A DNA stretch of 64,000 nucleotides from an uncultured Gemmataceae bacterium (GCA_963750165.1 CAVVPN010000010.1:64001-128000); one strand, 5' to 3'. Counted from the first letter of the stretch, positions 19,610-27,747 are shown. Numbers and translations are program-made. Notes: a model not told the origin generated them from the sequence alone.

Positions 19610-20678
19610 TTAGCGCCCCGGGCTCAGGCCGTCATCTGTCGCCTCAATGAACACGTCCACCTGCTGGCCGACCCACAAGCCGCCGCGCTCCGGCAGCACC
19701 GCGTAAATCACCTGCAGCACGCGCGTGTCCACGCGCTCGGTGGCGTCGCCGGTCAGCGACTTCTTGGGCACGACATACGGTTCGACGCGCACGAACTTCA
19801 GCGTGTAGCTGTGTTTGGCGTGGCCGCGTAGCACCGCCCGCGCCGCGGCCTGTGGGAAGAAGCGCGGCACATCCTGCTCGGCGATGTCAGCGCGGACGTG
19901 CAGCGGCCGCACGTTGCCGACCACCAGCAGCGCCTGCCCCGGCGGCGCCCCAACGAACTCGCCGACGCGCACGTTCTTCTGCAACACCGTGCCGTCGATG
20001 GGCGCCCGCACCCACAGGCGCTCCAACTCCGTTTCCGTCTGGATCAGCTGCGCGGGCCTGCTCCACGGCGGCGCGGGCCACCATCTTGTCCGGCTCCCAG
20101 GCGCCGGCCTTGAGCAGCGCGTCCTCCGCCTTCACGCGCGCCAGCTGCTCACGAGCCATGCGCGTCGCCTGCCGCCGGAGGATCAGGTCCTCGTCCGCGA
20201 TGGCCCTGGACGGCAACAGTTTCTCGGCGCGCCGGTACAACTCGTCCTTGTCGATCAGGTTGGCCTCGGCCTCGCGCACCTTGGCGACGCTGGGCGGCAG
20301 TTCCTCGGGCCGCGGCATCCGCTCCAGCTTGCTCAGCTGGGCCTCCGCGGACCACAGCAGGGCGATCCGGTACTTGCGCTCCGCCTGCAGCTGGCGGTCG
20401 TCGAGCCGAAACAGCGGGTCGCCCTGCTTGATCTCCTGGCCGACGACGACGAACACCTCTTCCACGACGCCCGGCAGGTGTGAGCCGATGGCGATGTTCT
20501 CGCTCTGCGGCTCGACGATGCCGGCGGCGGCCAGCGTCCTGCTGTAGGGGCTGCGCGTTGGCTCGACGGGGGGCGACGGCGCCGGCGGTGTTTGCTGGGC
20601 CGTGACGACATGGTGGACCGCCAGGCCGAGCATGCCCAGCGCCAGGGCGGGCAACAGCAGTTTGCGGATCGTGCGCAT
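19610..20678 (-). CDS. HlyD-family periplasmic adaptor (frameshift near 20050)
   Basis: [13 protein letters not shown], coiled coil, [22 protein letters not shown]. Confidence 0.85.
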
Positions 20679-20679
20679 A

Positions 20680-21396
20680 TCAGTGCTCCGTGAGGGGGGC
20701 GGCCAGGTCCGAGGGTTCCTTGTTCGAGACGACGCGGCCGTCGCTCATGGCGATGATGCGGCGGCCGAACTTGAAGATGCGGTTGTCGTGCGTCACCACG
20801 ATCACGCCGCGGCCCGGCTGGACCGCTATCTTCGTAAGCAACTCCATGACGGTCTGGCCGGAGTGGGCGTCAAGGGCGGCGGTCGGCTCGTCGCAGACGA
20901 GCAATTTCGGCTCGTGGATGAGGGCGCGGGCGATGGCGACGCGCTGCTGCTGGCCGCCGGACAGCTGGTTCGGCAGCGCCTGAACGCGCGGCCCCAGGCC
21001 GAGCTGCGTGAGCAATTCCGCGGCGCGGACAACGGCCTGGCGGCGCGGCCGGCCGGCGATCAGCAGCGGCACCGCGGCGTTCTCGGCGGCGGTCAGCGCC
21101 GGCAACAGGTTGTACTGCTGGAAGACGAAGCCGATGTTGTCGCCGCGGAAGCGCACCTTGCGGCCGCCGGACATGCGCGTCAGATCCTGGCCGAGCACAT
21201 TCACGGTGCCGCGCGTCGGTTCCAGCAAACCGGCGATGATCGACAGCAGGGTGGTCTTGCCGCAGCCGCTGGGGCCGACCAGCAGCGTCATCTCGCCGGC
21301 GAACACATCAAGGTCCACGCCGTCGAGGGCCTTCGTCTTCGATTCGCCCTGGCCGAACTCCTTCGTGACGCAGCGGCAGTGGACAACGGTGGACAT
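20680..21396 (-). CDS. ABC transporter ATP-binding protein (LolD/DevA-like)
   Basis: [33 protein letters not shown]. Confidence 0.92.
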
Positions 21397-21413
21397 GATT
21401 GCCTCGAAAACGA

Positions 21414-21528
21414 TTCACCACAAAGACACAAAGAGCACAAAGGAAAAGGCGAAGAGGAGGAATTCATTTGATCAATGCATTTCTGTTCTTTGCCTTTTCC
21501 TTTGCGCTCTTTGTGTCTTTGTGGTGAA
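21414..21528. repeat. REP-like inverted repeat, family C (CACCACAAAGACACAAAG)
   Basis: 9-mer iterated arms in inverted orientation; relatives at 38231-38336 and 50472-50499. Confidence 0.75.
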
Positions 21529-21535
21529 CCCTTCT

Positions 21536-22674
21536 TCATCCGCGGAACACGATGGCCGCCTCCAGCACGAGCACCTTGCGCATGCTCAGCAGGCTCGCCA
21601 GCACGGCGATGACCAGCACCGCTGCCGCCGTGCCGGCCATCACCTGCCAGCGCATGTAGAACCCGGCGAGAGCGACCACGTTCGCGGTCGATTCAAAGAA
21701 CAGCGCCGCCAGACCGACGCCCAGGCCGTAACCCAGCACCGCCACCACGGCCGCCTGCAACAGGATCATGCCCACCAGCCGCAGGTTGCTCACGCCCATC
21801 GCCTTCAGCGCCCCGAACTGCTTCAGATTTTCGATCGTAAACAGGTAGAACGTCTGTCCCGCGATGGCCACGCCGACGATGAAGCCCAGCGCCACCGTGA
21901 TGCCGAAATTCACCGGAATGCCCGTGAAACGCAGGTAAAACGCGATCGTGCGGTCGGAGAACTCGTCCGCCGTCAACGCCATCCGGCCCGTCTGCTGCTC
22001 GATGCGCGCGCTCAACTCCGGCAGCGACTGGCCCGGCTCCGCCTTGGCCAGCACGAACGTCATCATGTTGCGCTCCCTCGGCGCGAAGAAGATCGCCTGG
22101 CTGTAGCGTGCATACACGACGGGCAACGACTGAAACGGCGCTCCCGCCTTGCAGACGCCGACCAGCACCGCCCGGCGGTCGTTCATCTCCAGCACCTTGC
22201 CCAGCTCCACCGGCTGGTCCGGCCACAAATAGGTATAGCCCGCCTCATCGATGATAATTGCGTCGGGCTTGCGCAGGTCGGCGAGGTTGCCCAGCACCAT
22301 CTCCGCGGGGCGCCGACGAGCGTGTCATCGTCGATGCCCATGAGGAGGATTTGGCGGAAGTTGCCGTCGCTGAGCCGGGCCCGCGCGTTGCTCTTGTGCA
22401 GCGGCACCGCCCAGGCGACGCCCGGCACACTGCGGACGCGCTGCAGGTCCGTCGGCCGCAGGGCCGGCACCTCTTCGACGTAACGCACCTTCGCGTCCAT
22501 CACCCACAGGTCGGGCTCGCGCACGTCGCGGATCTGACTGGTGGTGCGCTGCAACAGGCTGATGAAGATCGACACCTGGTGCGCGATCAGCAACGACGCG
22601 AACATCACGCCAAAGACGATGCCGAGAAACTTGCTGCGGTCGCCCGTCAACATCTTGAAGGCCAGCCAGGTCAT
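21536..22674 (-). CDS. ABC transporter permease (FtsX/MacB/DevC-like; frameshift near 22300)
   Basis: LAFKMLTGDRSKF N-terminus; FGALKAMG and C-terminal TMs in a second frame. Confidence 0.85.
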
Positions 22675-22696
22675 GTCCGCTCCTCCGCGCAGGCTG

Positions 22697-23356
22697 TTAC
22701 ACCGATTTCGCAGACCGCTTTTTCGCCTTTTTGGCGGCCGGCGCCGCCGTCAGCGCCGCCAGGCAGAAGTCGGCGATGTGCTCCGCCAGGCGCTCGGCGG
22801 TGTAGGTGCGGGCCTCCTCCTCGCCGACGAGCTGCACGATGATGCTGCGGGCGCAGCGGTGGTGGATGCACTGGCCGATGATGCTCAGCACGATCAGGTG
22901 GCGCGCGTCCGACGGCGTGTCCGGTGCCACGAAGTCATCGACGATGCTCAGCAAGAGGTCGAAGTGCGGCCGGGCGAAATCACGGACGAAGGCAGCGCAG
23001 GCGGCCGACGGCTGGCTTAGTTCGCGGCCGACCAGTTGCATGTGCCAGGCCGGCCGGCCGTCGCCGATCAGCCCGGCGGTGAAGTGGCGCACGAACTCGC
23101 GCAGCCGTTCCTCGCGTGGCGTGCCCGGCGGCCAGCTCGGCATGTCCTCGGCGCTGTGGCGGCAGGCGAACGCTTTCTGCACTGTCTCGACGTACAGCCG
23201 CTCCTTGTCGCCGAAGTAGTAGTTGACCGCGGCAATATTGGCGGCGCCCGCGCGCTTGCAGATGTCGCGCACCGTCGCCGCCTCGAAGCCCTTGGCCGCG
23301 AAGATTTCGCCGGCGGCCTGCAGCAGGGCGGCCCTGGTGTCCTCGTTCAGTGTCAT
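22697..23356 (-). CDS. TetR-family regulator (CecR/YbiH-like)
   Basis: FAAKGFEAATVRDICKRAG..AAVNYYFGDKERLY HTH; heads the efflux operon. Confidence 0.9.
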   Translation of the reverse strand: MTLNEDTRAALLQAAGEIFAAKGFEAATVRDICKRAGAANIAAVNYYFGDKERLYVETVQKAFACRHSAEDMPSWPPGTPREERLREFVRHFTAGLIGDGRPAWHMQLVGRELSQPSAACAAFVRDFARPHFDLLLSIVDDFVAPDTPSDARHLIVLSIIGQCIHHRCARSIIVQLVGEEEARTYTAERLAEHIADFCLAALTAAPAAKKAKKRSAKSV

Positions 23357-23529: not shown

Positions 23530-24300
23530 TTACCCGGCCGACTTGAGCAGTTGCTTCGCCCGGCTCACCCAACGGCCATCGCGGCGGCGGGCCGGGCCGG
23601 ACGTGAAGTGATAGTCCGCCAACCCCTGCTCCACCACGCGCCGCGCCTCGTCGCGCGCGTCGGTGTCCATCAGGTGTTCGGCCAGCAGACAGCGGTGCTC
23701 CAGGCGCGGCGCCACGCGGGCGAGTTCGCGGCAGTGGACCAGGGCCGCGACCGATTCGCCGGCGTCGTCGCAGACCGTGACGAGCGTGCGGAACGCCTCG
23801 TAGTCGCGCCAGTTGGGCTGCTTGGCGACGAGCTTTTCCAGCAGCGGCATGGCCAGTTCGGGCTGCCCCAAACCGCGTCGCGCCTGCGCCAGCAGGAACA
23901 GTGCCTCGCAGTGCTCCGGCTCGCGCGCGAGCATCGCCTCCAGGTGCGGCGCCGCCTCGGCGCACTCGCCGACCTCGACCAGGCGCTCGCCCAGCTCGAA
24001 GCGGTTGGCGACGGTCGGCGTCTGCTCCGCCCGATAGCGCAGCTCCTGCAGCGACGGCCTGCGGTTGAACAGGATGGTCAGCCAGCCGGGGCGCTGGCTG
24101 TGGCCGCCCTGGAAGTCCTTGACCTTGTGCGTGAAGAAATACGCCCAGGCGCCGAAGGGCTGGAAGATGAGGATCATCCAGAACCACTGCGATTCGACGC
24201 CGCGGCGGTTGGCGTCCACGAGCATCCAAACCGTGAACGCCGCCTGCACCAGGAACAGCGGCGACAGGCCGTAATACAGGTAGGGGTCGTAATAGGGCAT
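23530..24300 (-). CDS. Membrane-anchored tetratricopeptide repeat protein
   Basis: Two N-terminal TMs, then PTVANRFELG and TPR-like helices. Confidence 0.8.
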   Translation of the reverse strand: MPYYDPYLYYGLSPLFLVQAAFTVWMLVDANRRGVESQWFWMILIFQPFGAWAYFFTHKVKDFQGGHSQRPGWLTILFNRRPSLQELRYRAEQTPTVANRFELGERLVEVGECAEAAPHLEAMLAREPEHCEALFLLAQARRGLGQPELAMPLLEKLVAKQPNWRDYEAFRTLVTVCDDAGESVAALVHCRELARVAPRLEHRCLLAEHLMDTDARDEARRVVEQGLADYHFTSGPARRRDGRWVSRAKQLLKSAG

Positions 24301-24449
24301 GACCGCACATGGGTTGAAAGGGCGACTGCTTTCCCCGCAATGGTAGCGGGGCGGGGGGAGATTGCAACCGCAGAAGGGGCGTCCGGTCGCTTTTCCGGTG
24401 CGCTGCCAGCGACGGCAGGTGCAGCGCAACCGCTCCGGAGAACGATCCC

Positions 24450-24563
24450 ATGTCGAGCGAACCCACGGTACTCGAGCGCAACCGGGAACTGGCCATGCGC
24501 ATCAACGCGGAAGCACGGCGGGATCCGCAATCGCCGTCAATCGGAGTCAAGAGAGAGGAGTAG
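24450..24563 (+). pseudogene. Possible 5-prime gene fragment (37 aa) abutting the tRNA array
   Basis: GGAG SD + MSSEPTVLERNRELAMRINAEARRDPQSP.., stop overlaps the last tRNA. Confidence 0.35.
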
Positions 24564-24633
24564 TCCCAGGTGGACTCGAACCACCGATCTTCCCCAGGTC
24601 AAGGGGCTGTCCTGGCCGCTGAACGATGGGACT
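24561..24633 (-). tRNA. tRNA-Val(GAC)
   Basis: Acceptor AGTCCCA/TGGGACT, anticodon loop TTGACCT, T arm GGTGG-TTCGAGT-CCACC; no CCA. Confidence 0.75.
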
Positions 24634-24643
24634 CTGTTTTCAG

Positions 24644-24716
24644 TACCCCGACCAGGAGTTGAACCCGGAACGCCTCGTTCGAAGCGAGGTATGATGATCC
24701 GTTTCACCATCGGGGC
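24644..24716 (-). tRNA. tRNA-Arg(TCG)
   Basis: GCCCCGA/TCGGGGT, CCTCG-CTTCGAA-CGAGG, T loop TTCAACT. Confidence 0.85.
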
Positions 24717-24721
24717 AAGAG

Positions 24722-24807
24722 CGGAAGGCAAGGGATTTGAACCCTCATACCCTGACGGGCGCACTGTTTAGCAAACAGGCCCGGCGAACCGTATCCGGCT
24801 ACCCTCC
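24722..24807 (-). tRNA. tRNA-Ser(GCT)
   Basis: GGAGGGT/GCCTTCC, loop TTGCTAA, long variable arm, G73. Confidence 0.85.
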
Positions 24808-24817
24808 GTTAGCGCAG

Positions 24818-24889
24818 TGGACCCACCGGGAATTGAACCCGGATTTTCAGTCTGCCGAACTGATGTCCTCCCGGTTGGACGATGAGCCC
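24818..24889 (-). tRNA. tRNA-Ala(GGC), C33
   Basis: G3:U70 pair, TCAGT-TCGGCAG-ACTGA. Confidence 0.8.
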
Positions 24890-24900
24890 ATTGATTGCAG

Positions 24901-24974
24901 TGGAGACGATGGGAATCGAACCCATCCCAGGTTGCTTGCAAGGCATCCTCGCCGCCCTTGGCACATGCGCCCCC
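24901..24974 (-). tRNA. tRNA-Ala(TGC)
   Basis: GGGGGCG/CGTCTCC with G3:U70, loop CTTGCAA; atypical D arm. Confidence 0.75.
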
Positions 24975-24985
24975 ACAAATGGCAG

Positions 24986-25057
24986 TGATCCCGGATGGAC
25001 TCGAACCATCGTTGCCTGGACGTGGCCCAGGAGTCGTGGCCGCTGGACCACGGGATC
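24986..25057 (-). tRNA. tRNA-Val(CAC), G32/C33
   Basis: GATCCCG/CGGGATC, CCTGG-GCCACGT-CCAGG, TTCGAGT. Confidence 0.7.
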
Positions 25058-25071
25058 ATCACAGCAGTCAG

Positions 25072-25150
25072 TGACCGAGGTGGGATTTGAACCCACAAAC
25101 AGATCACCAGGCTCTCGACCTGGTCGCTTTGCCAGTTTGCGTACTCGGCC
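25072..25150 (-). tRNA. tRNA-Leu(GAG), C33, short variable region
   Basis: GGCCGAG/CTCGGTC, CCAGG-TCGAGAG-CCTGG, 10-nt variable region. Confidence 0.75.
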
Positions 25151-25158
25151 GTCAGCAG

Positions 25159-25227
25159 TCGCGGGTCCGGGAGTCGCGCCCGGAGAGCTGGGATTATGAG
25201 CCCCGGCTGGAAACTCTTCCACCCGCC
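25159..25227 (-). tRNA. Degenerate tRNA-Met(CAT), initiator-like
   Basis: Loop CTCATAA closed by GGG/CCC, 1:72 mismatch, shrunken D arm, T loop CGCGACT. Confidence 0.55.
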
Positions 25228-25229
25228 AG

Positions 25230-25314
25230 TGACCAGGGGGAGACTTGAACTCCCACGCCTGTGATGAGGCACGGCCTTCTGAGGACCGCGTGTCTGCCAT
25301 TCCACCACCTGGCC
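25230..25314 (-). tRNA. tRNA-Leu(CAG)
   Basis: GGCCAGG/CCTGGTC, loop CTCAGAA, normal long variable arm. Confidence 0.9.
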
Positions 25315-25327
25315 ATGAACCAATCAG

Positions 25328-25400
25328 TAGCCCGTGCGGGAATCGAACCCGCGTCCTCAGCTTGAGGGGCTGAGATCCTGTGCCGTTAGAAGAACGGGCC
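25328..25400 (-). tRNA. tRNA-Glu(CTC), C33
   Basis: GGCCCGT/ACGGGCT, TCAGC-CCCTCAA-GCTGA, TTCGATT. Confidence 0.8.
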
Positions 25401-25404
25401 GCAG

Positions 25405-25484
25405 TGTGTCGGGCAGGAGTCGAACCTGCAAGGCTAACGCGGACGGGTTACAGCCGTCTGGGCCTGCCAGTGCCCAACCAACAC
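25405..25484 (-). tRNA. tRNA-Tyr(GTA)
   Basis: GTGTTGG/CCGACAC, GACGG-CTGTAAC-CCGTC, 12-nt variable region. Confidence 0.8.
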
Positions 25485-25494
25485 AGCACTTCAG

Positions 25495-25572
25495 TAGCGC
25501 GGGCGAGGGTCGAACTCGCAGTCGATCACCAAGGTTTGAGCTTGGCCGCTTTGCCAGTTTGCGTACCGCGCC
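25495..25572 (-). tRNA. tRNA-Leu(CAA), short variable region
   Basis: GGCGCGG/CCGCGCT, CCAAG-CTCAAAC-CTTGG, 9-nt variable region. Confidence 0.8.
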
Positions 25573-25577
25573 GTCAG

Positions 25578-25650
25578 CGCCCCGACGGGATTTGAACCCG
25601 CGATCTCCACCTTGACAGAGTGGCGAGGACTCCAGCTCCTCTACAGGGAC
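25578..25650 (-). tRNA. tRNA-Asp(GTC)
   Basis: CCACT-CTGTCAA-GGTGG, G73; acceptor 3-prime strand one base short (possible indel). Confidence 0.75.
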
Positions 25651-25659
25651 GTATCTCAG

Positions 25660-25733
25660 TAGCGCCGGTGGGAGTCGAACCCACAGCAGTTCTGGTTCTA
25701 AGCCAGAATGGTCGTCCGGTTGCCTACAGCGCC
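25660..25733 (-). tRNA. tRNA-Leu(TAG), no variable arm
   Basis: GGCGCTG/CGGCGCT, TCTGG-CTTAGAA-CCAGA, 74 nt. Confidence 0.75.
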
Positions 25734-25748
25734 GTTCGATCACCGAAG

Positions 25749-25822
25749 TGCGCGGGGTGGGAGTCGAACCCACAATCACCTGGGTTTAAGCCAGGCCGCT
25801 CTGCCGATTGGCGTACCCGGGC
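25749..25822 (-). tRNA. tRNA-Leu(TAA), no variable arm
   Basis: CCTGG-CTTAAAC-CCAGG, 5-nt variable loop TGATT, TTCGACT. Confidence 0.8.
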
Positions 25823-25829
25823 AAAACAG

Positions 25830-25901
25830 TTCGGGGAGAAGGGGTCGAACCTTCGTTGCCAGATTCAGAGTCTGGCGGCCTACCAGTTAGCCGATCCCCG
25901 A
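25830..25901 (-). tRNA. tRNA-Gln(CTG)
   Basis: TCGGGGA/TCCCCGA (U1:A72), CCAGA-CTCTGAA-TCTGG. Confidence 0.85.
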
Positions 25902-25920
25902 ATCTATGTCTCCGCTTCAG

Positions 25921-25993
25921 TAGGGCCGGTGGGACTCGAACCCACGTCTCATCGCTTAAAAGGCGAGCGCTCTGACCGCTGAGCTACGACCCC
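25921..25993 (-). tRNA. tRNA-Lys(TTT)
   Basis: GGGGTCG-TAGCTCAGCGGTCAGAGC, loop CTTTTAA, TTCGAGT. Confidence 0.9.
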
Positions 25994-26035
25994 ATGTGGG
26001 ATGCGTAGCCGACGTTTACCAGGTGCTTGTCGCAT
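25949..26035 (-). CDS. Putative 28-aa mini-ORF overlapping tRNA-Lys
   Basis: AGGAG SD 8 nt before ATG; MRQAPGKRRLRIPHGVVAQRSERSPFKR*. Confidence 0.35.
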   Translation of the reverse strand: MRQAPGKRRLRIPHGVVAQRSERSPFKR

Positions 26036-26054
26036 GACCGCTGCTCCTGTCGAG

Positions 26055-26125
26055 TAGTCCGGGGTGGAGTTGCACCACCACTGACGACGTATCAGATCGC
26101 CGTGCTCCTGTTACACCACCAGACT
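26055..26125 (-). tRNA. tRNA-Ile(GAT), atypical T loop
   Basis: AGTCTGG/CCGGACT, GCGAT-CTGATAC-GTCGT, T loop TGCAACT. Confidence 0.7.
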
Positions 26126-26144
26126 GTCTGCTCCGGCCCCGTCC

Positions 26145-26180
26145 AACGAAAAAGGCCGGGTGTTTCGTGACACCCGGCCT
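26145..26180 (-). terminator. Intrinsic terminator (attenuator) upstream of the tRNA array
   Basis: 11-bp stem AGGCCGGGTGT/ACACCCGGCCT, 6-nt loop, TTTTCGTT tail, 20 nt before the first tRNA. Confidence 0.8.
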
Positions 26181-26209
26181 GAAGCGTTCTCTTCAGTGCG
26201 TTCGCGGGG

Positions 26210-26311
26210 TCACAAGTTGAGACGATCAAGAGCCAGCAGTTTGCGCTGATAGGCCGCGACGGCCTGCAACGCCTGCTGTTCAAGCACCAGACTGATCACG
26301 GAATAACGCAT
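26210..26311 (-). CDS. Putative attenuator leader peptide (33 aa)
   Basis: MRYSVISLVLEQQALQAVAAYQRKLLALDRLNL*; stop codon lies in the antiterminator strand; SD weak. Confidence 0.6.
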   Translation of the reverse strand: MRYSVISLVLEQQALQAVAAYQRKLLALDRLNL

Positions 26312-26369
26312 GGTATTGTCGATCGTCTCAAGAAGGTTAATGAGGTTCAGGATCGCCTCGCACACATAA

Positions 26370-26394
26370 GACGGCTAACCCTTTCGTTTGGTTC
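26370..26394 (-). promoter_or_regulatory. Putative ECF sigma promoter for the leader/tRNA array
   Basis: GAAC-N17-CGTC preceded by an A-rich tract (TTTGAAAAAAT). Confidence 0.55.
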
Positions 26395-26493
26395 GCCGAT
26401 TTTTTCAAATTCTTTCGGTCGTTGCGTCCTACGGAAGATGAGACGCCGACCCCCACCAGTTGGTTCGCTGTGAATCCAAAAATATTTCGCGGC

Positions 26494-27747
26494 TCAGGAC
26501 AACCGATACCTGGGTTGTTGCTCCAGATACCGCCGCACCCGCTCCGTGCGCGTCACCGCCTCCTTCAGGAAGCCAACCGCCAGCCGCAGCCGCTCGTCCG
26601 GCTCGGCGCAGCTGAAGCGCAGGAAACCCTGTCCCGCCGCTCCGAAGCACTCGCCGCCCAGGCACGCCACGCCGAAGCGCTCGTCCGCCGCCTCCAGCAG
26701 GAACATCGCCAGGCCGTGCGACGTGATGCCCTGCCGCCGGCAGATCGCGGACACGTCCGGGAACACGTAAAACGTCCCCGCCGGCATCAACACCTGGACT
26801 TCCGGCACCAGGCGCAGTTCCGCGACCAGCAACTGCACCTTCTTGTGGAAGCGCCGCATCACCTCGTCGCGCTCGGCGGCGTCGTACTGGAGGGCGGCCT
26901 GGCCGGCCAGCTGCACGATCGGCGGCACGCACGACAGGCTCGTGTTAATCATCTTGCCGATGGTCTCGATCAGCCGCGGACTGCTGACCGCGTAGCCGAG
27001 TCGCCAACCGCTCATGCTGTACGACTTGCTGAAGGTATACGCCGCCACCACCTGGTCGAGCATGTCCGGATGCTCCAGCAGCGTGTGGTGCCGGCCCTGC
27101 CAGACCATGTGGCAGTACGGTTCATCGCTGAACACCGCCACGTCCTGGCCGCGCACCAGATCGGCGATGCCACGCAGGTCCTCCGCCGTGGCGACGCCGC
27201 CGGTCGGGTTGTGCGGCGAGTTCAAAAAGATCGCCTTTGGCCGGGCTGCCGTCTTCAGGAAGTCGGCCACGGCGTTCAGGTCCGGGCGGAACTGGTGCGC
27301 CTGCTTCAGTGCCGCGAACACCGGCCGGGCACCGCGGCGCTCGATGTTCGGCACGAACGTCGGGAACTGCGGGCTGAACACCAGCACGCTGTCGCCAGCG
27401 TCCAGCACCGCCTCGCAGAAGAACTGCTCGAACACCTTGGCGCCAGCGCCCACCACGACGTTGGCCGCCGTGATCGGCACGCCGAACTCCTTGCCGTAGT
27501 TCTCCGCAATGGTCTCGCGGAAGCCCGGTAGGCCCAGCGAGGCGCAGTAGTGCGTCTCGCCGGTGTCGATGGCCTGACGGCCGGCTTCGCGGGCGTGTTT
27601 GGTGCTGGGAAAGGGGCTGTCGCCGATCTGCAACTCGACCACATCCTTGCCCTGGGCCTTGAGCCGGCGGGCGACCGCCAGCACGTCGAAGGCGGTCTCG
27701 GCCGAAAGTTCCCGGGCGAAACGACTCAGGCTCACGGGGGTGGTCAT
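26494..27747 (-). CDS. PLP-dependent aminotransferase class I/II
   Basis: NSPHNPTGG, SDEPY, TFSKSYSMSGWRLGY, GTFYVF. Confidence 0.92.
   Translation of the reverse strand: MTTPVSLSRFARELSAETAFDVLAVARRLKAQGKDVVELQIGDSPFPSTKHAREAGRQAIDTGETHYCASLGLPGFRETIAENYGKEFGVPITAANVVVGAGAKVFEQFFCEAVLDAGDSVLVFSPQFPTFVPNIERRGARPVFAALKQAHQFRPDLNAVADFLKTAARPKAIFLNSPHNPTGGVATAEDLRGIADLVRGQDVAVFSDEPYCHMVWQGRHHTLLEHPDMLDQVVAAYTFSKSYSMSGWRLGYAVSSPRLIETIGKMINTSLSCVPPIVQLAGQAALQYDAAERDEVMRRFHKKVQLLVAELRLVPEVQVLMPAGTFYVFPDVSAICRRQGITSHGLAMFLLEAADERFGVACLGGECFGAAGQGFLRFSCAEPDERLRLAVGFLKEAVTRTERVRRYLEQQPRYRLS

Follow-up and report, generated by a model that had tools for sequence, protein, structure and literature searches.

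The 64,000-nucleotide stretch of DNA from an uncultured Gemmataceae bacterium analyzed in this work (GCA_963750165.1 CAVVPN010000010.1:64001-128000, in the following termed the window) carries an array of 18 tRNA genes on the minus strand, preceded by a short open reading frame (ORF) and an intrinsic terminator. We consider it likely that this upstream region constitutes a leader-peptide, that is ribosome-mediated, transcription attenuator which is codon-matched to the tRNA genes it controls and driven by a promoter of the extracytoplasmic function (ECF) sigma factor type. The tRNAs would then probably be made when ribosomes slow for lack of them. The elements upstream of the array are the following (window positions):

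26441..26466, minus strand: ECF-type promoter motif P1 (GAACC-N16-CGTCT), found by regular expression and by position weight matrix (PWM, 22.6 bits)
26369..26394, minus strand: ECF-type promoter motif P2 (GAACC-N16-CGTCT), PWM score 21.2 bits
26311..26210, minus strand: leader ORF of 33 codons plus TGA, MRYSVISLVLEQQALQAVAAYQRKLLALDRLNL; an ORF of 29-35 codons is present in most leaders of relatives
26205..26215, minus strand: 5' strand of the putative antiterminator, UUGUGACCCCG, including the UGA stop; pairs with 26163-26175 in the minimum free energy (MFE) structure of the truncated transcript
26179..26196, minus strand: small spacer hairpin (CUGAAG...CUUCAG) in the antiterminator loop, seen in predicted folds of the window leader
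26180..26148, minus strand: intrinsic terminator with an 11-bp stem (8 GC pairs), a 6-nt loop and T5; hairpin free energy -21.9 kcal/mol

An earlier note on the same DNA had already described a promoter motif of the form GAAC-N17-CGTC, a 33-residue leader ORF and a strong intrinsic terminator. All three are present; the motif seen at that time is P2, which starts at 26394, and a second copy starts at 26466. The first gene of the array, tRNA-Ile, begins 22 nt past the T-tract of the terminator.

As judged by sequence comparison, promoter, leader ORF, terminator and tRNA array is a conserved unit. Among the first 20 loci fetched, 13 showed the order promoter motif, short ORF, hairpin, T-tract and tRNA when the 260 nt upstream were inspected by eye. 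A covariance model of the leader end and the terminator (R1), built from 13 copies and with the terminator as its only structure, matched 81 of 151 Gemmataceae genomes at E values up to 0.01, 43 of 88 high-quality genomes and 62 of 90 genera; closed genomes are among those matched, and a single genome may hold as many as 7 copies. The promoter-leader-terminator layout recurs in homologous arrays of relatives, which range from 4 to 45 tRNAs, some containing 29-45 genes. In 150 other genomes across the phylum R1 was found in one further family of the same class only (3 of 6 genomes), where the element precedes 11-13 tRNAs too; in a sister family of the same order, one genome carries the R1 element (69 bits). 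A tRNA on the same strand starts within 200 nt after 71 of the 75 full-length copies, and the other four are followed by a tRNA at 211 nt, by a tRNA at 286 nt, by none that was found and by the contig end after 62 nt. About 50 copies have their tRNA no more than 35 nt away, too close for a separate promoter. Two loci that look alike by eye (L030 and L031, family f2) did not match R1 at E values up to 1e-4. In the host assembly (9.62 Mb in 12 contigs, denoted by C and a number; 66% GC, 93% completeness) a similar hairpin at C3:3165962 was rejected as an ordinary terminator following a membrane-protein ORF, with no tRNA downstream.

Putative leader peptide and competing helices

Read from an in-frame ATG, the ORF comprises 29-35 codons in 59 of 72 leaders, with 33 (21 leaders) and 32 codons (18 leaders) as the commonest lengths. 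A Shine-Dalgarno-like 4-mer is located at positions -16 to -4 relative to the ATG in 43 of 69 leaders, as compared with 6 of 69 in a segment 30 nt further upstream, and the ORF appears to be translated. The body of the peptide differs between subfamilies and its last residues are mostly (Y/H/R)-P-L-R-L; this tail is not universal, the window leader ending in RLNL and others in QNL, LVW or RYRQ. For the Pro codon of the tail the entropies at the three codon positions amount to 0.58, 1.26 and 1.98 bits, the third base being distributed over T (21 copies), C (21), G (19) and A (13). The values for the Arg codon are 0.81, 0.99 and 1.78 bits, and the Leu codon begins with C in 34 and with T in 32 of 74 copies. 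Entropy that tracks codon position, combined with synonymous variation at P, L and R, argues for selection on the amino acid. Of 75 copies, 74 carry TGA as the aligned stop and 71 have C directly after it.

The end of the ORF, G-UGA-C-R-C-C, is complementary to the 5' arm of the terminator and the first bases of its loop (GG-Y-GUC-AC). Covariation was counted in an alignment of 83 rows (A3), in which 98.8% of the cells of the 11 terminator pairs are paired and six pairs covary on both sides; for the 8 pairs of the antiterminator 93.5% of the cells are paired and five pairs change on both sides. For neither helix did any of 500 shuffles reach the observed value, and controls in which the helix was slid along the alignment gave 25-54% paired cells for the terminator and 16-58% for the antiterminator. 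At the central antiterminator pair, 38 rows have AU, 25 GC and 6 GU, with 8 rows unpaired, and the 5'-arm column of this pair covaries with the 3' arm of the terminator too. Such three-way covariation is the pattern predicted by mutually exclusive helices. A more distant family forms the helix AUGACAC:GUGUCAU with a compensatory change at the outermost pair.

Predicted folds point in the same direction. When the transcript is cut before the 3' arm of the terminator, the antiterminator is part of the MFE structure in 64 of 72 leaders, and at full length the terminator is present in 63 of 72; with segments displaced by -36, -24, -12 or +12 nt as controls, the count was 0 of 72. The two conformers are close in median energy, with -23.6 kcal/mol for the antiterminator and -23.4 kcal/mol for the terminator hairpin, and the median distance between stop and arm is 29 nt. 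The leader of the window folds likewise, into the antiterminator when cut before the 3' arm and into the terminator at full length. With the stop codon lying inside a covarying antiterminator, the position of the ribosome should decide on read-through. A further helix was considered as part of the switch and rejected: the 11 nt just 5' of the start codon (26321-26331) can pair without a mismatch with codons -6 to -2 of the ORF (26216-26226) and close the window ORF into a long stem, and a comparable helix between 5' untranslated region and ORF end exists in only 27 of 69 leaders.

The codons of the leaders correspond to the tRNAs encoded downstream. This was assessed for 70 leader-array pairs, with the arrays read to 1300 nt or to the contig end and with Met1 and the last five codons left out, the latter because they would be too close to the antiterminator strand to free it. 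A tRNA for the same amino acid is encoded downstream for a fraction of 0.508 of the leader residues as compared with 0.382 after permutation (standard deviation 0.011; 0 of 5000 permutations), and at the codon-anticodon level the values are 0.377 and 0.254; as the relatives are kin, these counts overstate independence. In 15 of 16 genomes with at least two pairs, the leaders' own arrays scored better than other arrays of the same genome (mean difference 0.19). The window leader reaches a score of 0.85, with 23 of 27 scored residues served by 13 ARAGORN-called tRNAs within 1,300 nt downstream, and is devoid of G, P, T, H, C, W and F, the amino acids its array lacks. Two other leaders of the same genome follow suit: MFGNQNQPLMNPERW on contig C4, encoded with AAT CAA AAT CAA, precedes genes for Asn-GTT and Gln-TTG, and a leader on contig C11 contains TCG twice, TGC twice, CAT twice and CCN three times before Ser-CGA, Cys-GCA, His-GTG and Pro-TGG.

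We propose that RNA polymerase would start at GAACC-N16-CGTCT and transcribe the ORF of about 33 codons, the stop of which sits in a segment of 8-11 nt (G-UGA-C-R-CC) complementary to the 5' arm of the terminator and the adjoining edge of its loop, about 29 nt downstream. In the off state, a prompt ribosome on UGA-C would cover this segment, the terminator would form and transcription would end before the first tRNA. UGA-C is a poor termination context, and together with the conserved P-L-R-L tail it may hold the ribosome in place until the polymerase has passed the terminator. In the on state, a ribosome that is stalled or lagging five or more codons upstream, or was never loaded, would leave the segment free to pair with the terminator 5' arm as antiterminator, and the polymerase would enter the array. 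Because the leader body consists largely of codons read by the array tRNAs, shortage, damage or undercharging of these tRNAs would raise their own transcription; general translation failure would likewise do so. A conserved 1:2 "pause" helix was not found in the Gemmataceae leaders, and untranslated RNA is therefore predicted to read through. We infer the masking of the antiterminator strand from the geometry of the ribosome footprint, and the direction of the switch as well as the parking role of PLRL-UGA-C are likewise inferred.

Ribosome stalling at a stop codon is known from TnaC, and an arrest of this type could also be envisaged here if the P-L-R-L tail and UGA-C made release by release factor 2 (RF2) conditional, so that RF2 activity, a small molecule or the state of the P-site tRNA-Leu would control how long the ribosome masks the antiterminator strand. 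Sensing at the stop would account for the near-invariant TGA-C, for the conservation of P-L-R at the amino-acid level and for the position of the last five codons, which according to the footprint geometry would lie too near the antiterminator strand to act as strand-freeing sensors. We nevertheless regard it as unlikely: prolonged stalling at the stop would leave the array switched off, for which no need is apparent, the tail is not universal, G at position -1 and UGAC are constrained by the RNA helix too, and codon matching in the leader body would be left unexplained.

A dispersed second set of tRNA genes and its promoter

The array is part of a larger set. Within 300 nt upstream of the first gene, GAAC-N16-18-GTC is present at all seven array-type tRNA loci of the genome, and elsewhere it precedes only two ARAGORN-called tRNAs, Val-CAC (C3:533999) and Phe-GAA (C11:778912). 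The seven loci are:

Locus 1, the window array: 18 genes, matches the R1 leader model
Locus 2, C11:2270561-2271064: Lys-CTT, Pro-TGG, Ser-CGA, Cys-GCA, His-GTG; R1 match at C11:2271085
Locus 3, C11:2246175-2246403: Trp-CCA, Thr-CGT, Arg-CCG; without R1 match
Locus 4, C3:2578659-2579056: Arg-TCT, Gly-GCC, Ser-GGA, Gly-TCC; without R1 match
Locus 5, C4:499380-499536: Asn-GTT, Gln-TTG; R1 match at C4:499571
Locus 6, C1:79646: Glu-TTC; without R1 match
Locus 7, C1:81665: Arg-GCG; without R1 match

They amount to 34 tRNAs with 34 different anticodons and cover 19 amino acids; Phe is served solely by the single tRNA-Phe of the genome. In front of the genes at C3:2578659 and C11:2246403, 34-49 nt separate the promoter motif from the first tRNA. 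Arg-GCG, as at C1:81665, and Ile-TAT are often present in arrays of relatives (L013-L025). Bacteria usually use ACG (inosine) and lysidine-CAT in place of these, and tRNAs of the two kinds would decode without A-to-I or lysidine modification enzymes. Twelve kb from the sole tRNA-Phe gene, a partial copy of its 3' half is found (C11:778912-791256), a trace such as integrating elements usually leave at a tRNA gene.

The genome contains 97 tRNAs according to ARAGORN and 76 above the Rfam cut-off according to Infernal, and with both programs Lys-TTT, Leu-TAA and Val-GAC were found nowhere except in the window array. In 1266 long ORFs, GTC makes up 42% of the Val codons (32.6 per 1000) and AAA 19% of the Lys codons, and TTA occurs at 0.7 per 1000. 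Since the three anticodons are confined to the array and GUC is the major Val codon, the array would be needed in ordinary growth, and it is probably expressed under these conditions unless housekeeping copies sit in assembly gaps. When a housekeeping Lys-TTT was sought in relatives by BLAST with the 74-nt gene, a query too insensitive for the purpose, only the array copy was returned from one closed genome (G061) and nothing from another genome (G003). The notion of an array that is kept silent, put forward in the earlier note, is doubtful in view of the three array-only anticodons. In the mechanism as proposed here, feedback on supply would allow the array to be regulated even though Val-GAC, Lys-UUU and Leu-UAA are apparently needed.

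The same anticodons lend some weight to the view that there is no regulated switch at all, that the ORF is a small independent gene or noise and the hairpin a leaky terminator, an insulator or an element for 5' stability or processing, with constitutive read-through and control by the promoter alone: if the three tRNAs are needed in normal growth, substantial constitutive expression is to be expected, and other tRNA loci of the set possess the promoter without the leader. This view leaves much unaccounted for, namely a stop codon inside a helix that covaries with the terminator arm, the constancy of ORF length and of the spacing between stop and hairpin, the similar energies of both conformers and the match of leaders to their own arrays, and we consider it quite improbable.

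With regard to the promoter, we take GAAC at -35 and CGTC at -10, separated by 16-17 nt, to be the ECF-type consensus. A scan of positions 24000-27000 for the sigma-70 consensus returned 0 promoter-like sites. In 62 of 72 leaders GAAC-N16-18-NGTC is present within 160 nt of the leader ATG. With the PWM, which was trained on relatives only, tRNA loci of the genome rank 3rd, 7th, 11th, 12th, 14th and 16th among 90 hits. Plain GAACC-N16-CGTC is not enriched genome-wide, with 198 occurrences as compared with 185-200 for spacings of 13, 15 and 19 nt and 86 for 17 nt; only the PWM with its flanks, not simple motif counting, is informative at this level.

A GAACC-N16-CGTCT site of 21.5 bits is located about 35 nt upstream of the archease start in a minus-strand operon (C3:1267588-1269538) that encodes archease (PF01951, 8.7e-45) followed by RtcB (PF01139, 1.7e-175). 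In relatives, GAACC-N14-17-(C/T/G)GTC occurs 45-110 nt upstream of archease at 19 of 68 loci, as compared with 1 at 111-300 nt upstream and 2 on the reverse strand. The strict PWM passes at 5 of 29 archease loci of relatives, and with this figure and that from the looser regular expression the link to rtcB is only moderate. A promoter type shared with archease-rtcB would favour a response in translation or to tRNA damage; the dependence on an ECF sigma factor and the connection to RtcB/archease repair are putative. The best promoter site of the genome (25.9 bits) precedes the gene for a 194-residue OGFOD2-like protein (PF25238, 1.4e-41; C7:11509-12291), which may be a further member of the regulon. 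This site is duplicated at C4:1338750, presumably as a result of assembly, since the identical site lies at a contig end. A 310-residue protein of the sigma-70 family (region 2) is encoded at C4:498025-498957 on the same strand as the leader-controlled Asn/Gln pair; this gene, 420 nt downstream of the pair, was rejected as the source of the cognate sigma factor on account of an apparent antisense ORF in between.

Several points weigh against the attenuator as we describe it. Alignment A3 was fitted to the terminator-based model and not to the antiterminator, and the kinship of the relatives lets shuffle and permutation counts overstate significance. The window leader itself has a C-U mismatch at the central antiterminator pair. 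As the terminator is favoured in the full-length MFE, the antiterminator would have to win kinetically. Arrays were read only to 1300 nt or the contig end in the matching test. The strict promoter regular expression is missing from 10 of 72 leaders, most of which carry variants, and none of 71 sigma70_r2 genes has a convincing motif upstream that would mark it as the cognate sigma. An R1 leader match is absent at four of the seven tRNA loci (C3:2578659, C11:2246403, C1:79646 and C1:81665), and attenuation is therefore not obligatory for the tRNA set. Finally, the conserved PLRL-UGA-C tail is unexplained by the classical model, and the real signal could act at termination. From the earlier proposal of a stress rescue array that is turned on via attenuation, the attenuation part is supported by the conserved unit, the selection on amino acids and the covarying antiterminator, whereas silence of the array and rescue restricted to stress are not supported as stated: the match between a leader and its own tRNAs speaks for feedback on supply no less than for a rescue under stress alone.

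The array genes and their neighborhood

The array consists of 18 genes in 1.57 kb, all on one strand and with 18 different anticodons. Order and anticodons are exactly those given in the earlier note, and none is duplicated. ARAGORN detected 16 minus-strand tRNA genes within 24560..26125 at default settings, and Met-CAT (25227..25158) and Ser-GCT (24807..24721) solely at the relaxed setting -ps80. With the Rfam tRNA model, 14 array tRNAs scored 40-68 bits, and Tyr and Ser gave only weak tRNA-Sec-like matches.

26054..26125, minus strand: tRNA-Ile(GAT); ARAGORN, Rfam 51.6 bits
25920..25993, minus strand: tRNA-Lys(TTT), canonical; ARAGORN, Rfam 68.3 bits; sole Lys-TTT found in the genome
25229..25901, minus strand: tRNAs Gln-CTG, Leu-TAA, Leu-TAG, Asp-GTC, Leu-CAA, Tyr-GTA, Glu-CTC and Leu-CAG; ARAGORN
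25158..25227, minus strand: tRNA-Met(CAT)-like, with non-standard T-loop; ARAGORN -ps80 only
24817..25150, minus strand: tRNAs Leu-GAG, Val-CAC, Ala-TGC and Ala-GGC; ARAGORN
24721..24807, minus strand: tRNA-Ser(GCT), class II; ARAGORN -ps80, tRNA-Sec-like Rfam match of 27.7 bits
24560..24716, minus strand: tRNAs Arg-TCG and Val-GAC; ARAGORN; sole Val-GAC found in the genome

The cloverleaf-like fold of Met-CAT is not better than that of shuffled sequences (z = -0.18). Array tRNAs score 40-61 bits (Lys-TTT 68.3) as compared with mostly 55-75 bits for housekeeping tRNAs, and are 53-72% identical to housekeeping genes with the same anticodon. Four of the five tRNAs for Leu are only 75-80 nt long (25072-25822) and hence have short variable arms, which is unusual for class II tRNAs; the 75-nt Leu-TAA is kept in arrays of relatives. 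The description of the array as non-canonical is partly apt but does not extend to Lys-TTT. CCA is not encoded by any tRNA gene of the genome. The discriminator is followed by CTG in 14 of the 16 ARAGORN-called array tRNAs and by CTT and CTC in the other two, and C followed by T is also common 3' of housekeeping tRNAs; C-T after the discriminator may be a signal for 3' processing.

A tRNA array unit has been defined by at least 20 tRNA genes at a density of at least 2 tRNA genes per kb (Tran et al., 2015, PMC4758250); the window array has the density and, with 18 genes, falls short of the number. The term L-array denotes long same-strand arrays of supernumerary isodecoders with patchy distribution and horizontal spread, which have been noted for Planctomycetes (Santamaria-Gomez et al., 2021, PMC8421152). 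The window array is same-strand and divergent from the housekeeping set, but it is widespread in the family, adds three anticodons and has no mobility genes nearby. That it is a recently acquired mobile or phage-derived cryptic L-array with the leader as a relic of the donor, as might be supposed from the horizontal spread and poor expression reported for L-arrays (PMC8421152) and from the low identity to housekeeping tRNAs, is very improbable given that no integrase or phage gene is present within about 12 kb, that viral contigs gave 0 matches to the hairpin pattern, that the unit occurs in 62 of 90 sampled Gemmataceae genera with multiple copies per genome and that the array holds the sole Lys-TTT, Leu-TAA and Val-GAC genes found.

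Among 34 ORFs compared with Pfam within about 12 kb of the array, 10 of which matched no family, none encodes an integrase, a phage protein, RtcB or a Ro protein, just as the earlier note had it for the adjacent genes. With respect to RtcB this is true for the neighborhood, but archease-rtcB, encoded elsewhere, has a promoter of the same type as the array. The matches comprise a class I/II aminotransferase, a TPR protein, a TetR regulator, a MacAB-like ABC/FtsX/HlyD set, Tad pilins, DUF1501, a luciferase-like monooxygenase and a short-chain dehydrogenase. At 19610-23356 a TetR/CecR regulator adjoins the MacAB-like efflux set (ABC ATPase, FtsX permease, HlyD), the HlyD gene seemingly being split into two ORFs (19610-20026 and 19887-20678).

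Relation to known regulatory systems

The attenuators of amino acid operons in enterobacteria (trpL, hisL, leuL, pheL, thrL) resemble the Gemmataceae leaders in their short translated leader, intrinsic terminator and mutually exclusive antiterminator, in that the position of the leading ribosome decides, and in the link between the sensor codons and what the regulated genes encode. They differ in controlling biosynthetic enzymes instead of tRNA genes and in using a run of codons for one amino acid, where the Gemmataceae leaders offer many kinds of codons for a mixed tRNA set. The Gemmataceae switch is also built differently, from two strands and a shared arm with the stop codon inside the antiterminator strand, and has a conserved PLRL-UGA-C C-terminus and an ECF-type promoter. 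In inhibitor-sensing attenuators (bmrB-bmrCD, the whiB7 upstream ORF and leaders of ARE-ABCF genes) an upstream ORF, a terminator and an antiterminator are likewise combined, and slowed ribosomes induce relief genes; these are efflux pumps, regulators and ABCF proteins, not tRNA genes, and we know of no inhibitor-sensing attenuator that controls the latter. Textbook control of bacterial tRNA genes operates via growth rate and the stringent response. In a search of positions 24000-27000 against Rfam at E values up to 1, no family beyond the tRNA clan and chance hits was found, and neither a T-box nor any other described RNA leader.

The closest biological parallel is the trn operon of Anabaena sp. 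PCC 7120, an L-array which is repressed by the ribbon-helix-helix protein TrcR at direct repeats over a sigma-70 promoter, the repeats spanning the -10 box and the start site (PMC8421152). It shares its control with rtcB and has been linked to translational stress (PMC8421152; PMC10272220). Both systems have in common a supernumerary array apart from the housekeeping set, a link to translational stress and control shared with rtcB, the latter two being putative in Gemmataceae. In Anabaena, however, a protein repressor takes the place of the ECF-type promoter and leader-peptide attenuator proposed for Gemmataceae, and the Gemmataceae array differs from that of Anabaena in being chromosomal and family-wide and in supplying anticodons absent from the housekeeping set. 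The terms terminator, leader and attenuat have 0 occurrences in the article on the Anabaena operon (PMC8421152), and in searches of the literature, judged by titles and abstracts of the hits listed, no attenuation or leader peptide controlling tRNA arrays was found. L-arrays are known and attenuation is textbook knowledge; their combination appears to be new.

If the proposed mechanism is true, a leader peptide that reads the codons of its own tRNAs would form a direct feedback loop on tRNA supply, and long cryptic tRNA arrays would gain a testable function and an on-switch. Gemmataceae would arrive by another route at what Anabaena achieves with TrcR, and the shared promoter type would tie the arrays to RNA repair by archease-RtcB. 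The 75 natural leader variants are ready-made compensatory mutants. More tentatively, we suggest that in Gemmataceae a complete, non-redundant second tRNA set, in the genome at hand the 34 tRNAs of the seven loci, forms one alternative-sigma regulon with archease-RtcB, a response to damage or shortage in which tRNAs would be both replaced and repaired, for instance following the action of anticodon nucleases or translation-targeting toxins. Most arrays would be headed by a leader "test-driving" the tRNAs of that array. Arg-GCG and Ile-UAU would then be decoders independent of A-to-I and lysidine enzymes, and in some lineages essential decoding (Lys-UUU, Leu-UAA, Val-GAC) would have been taken over by the second set.

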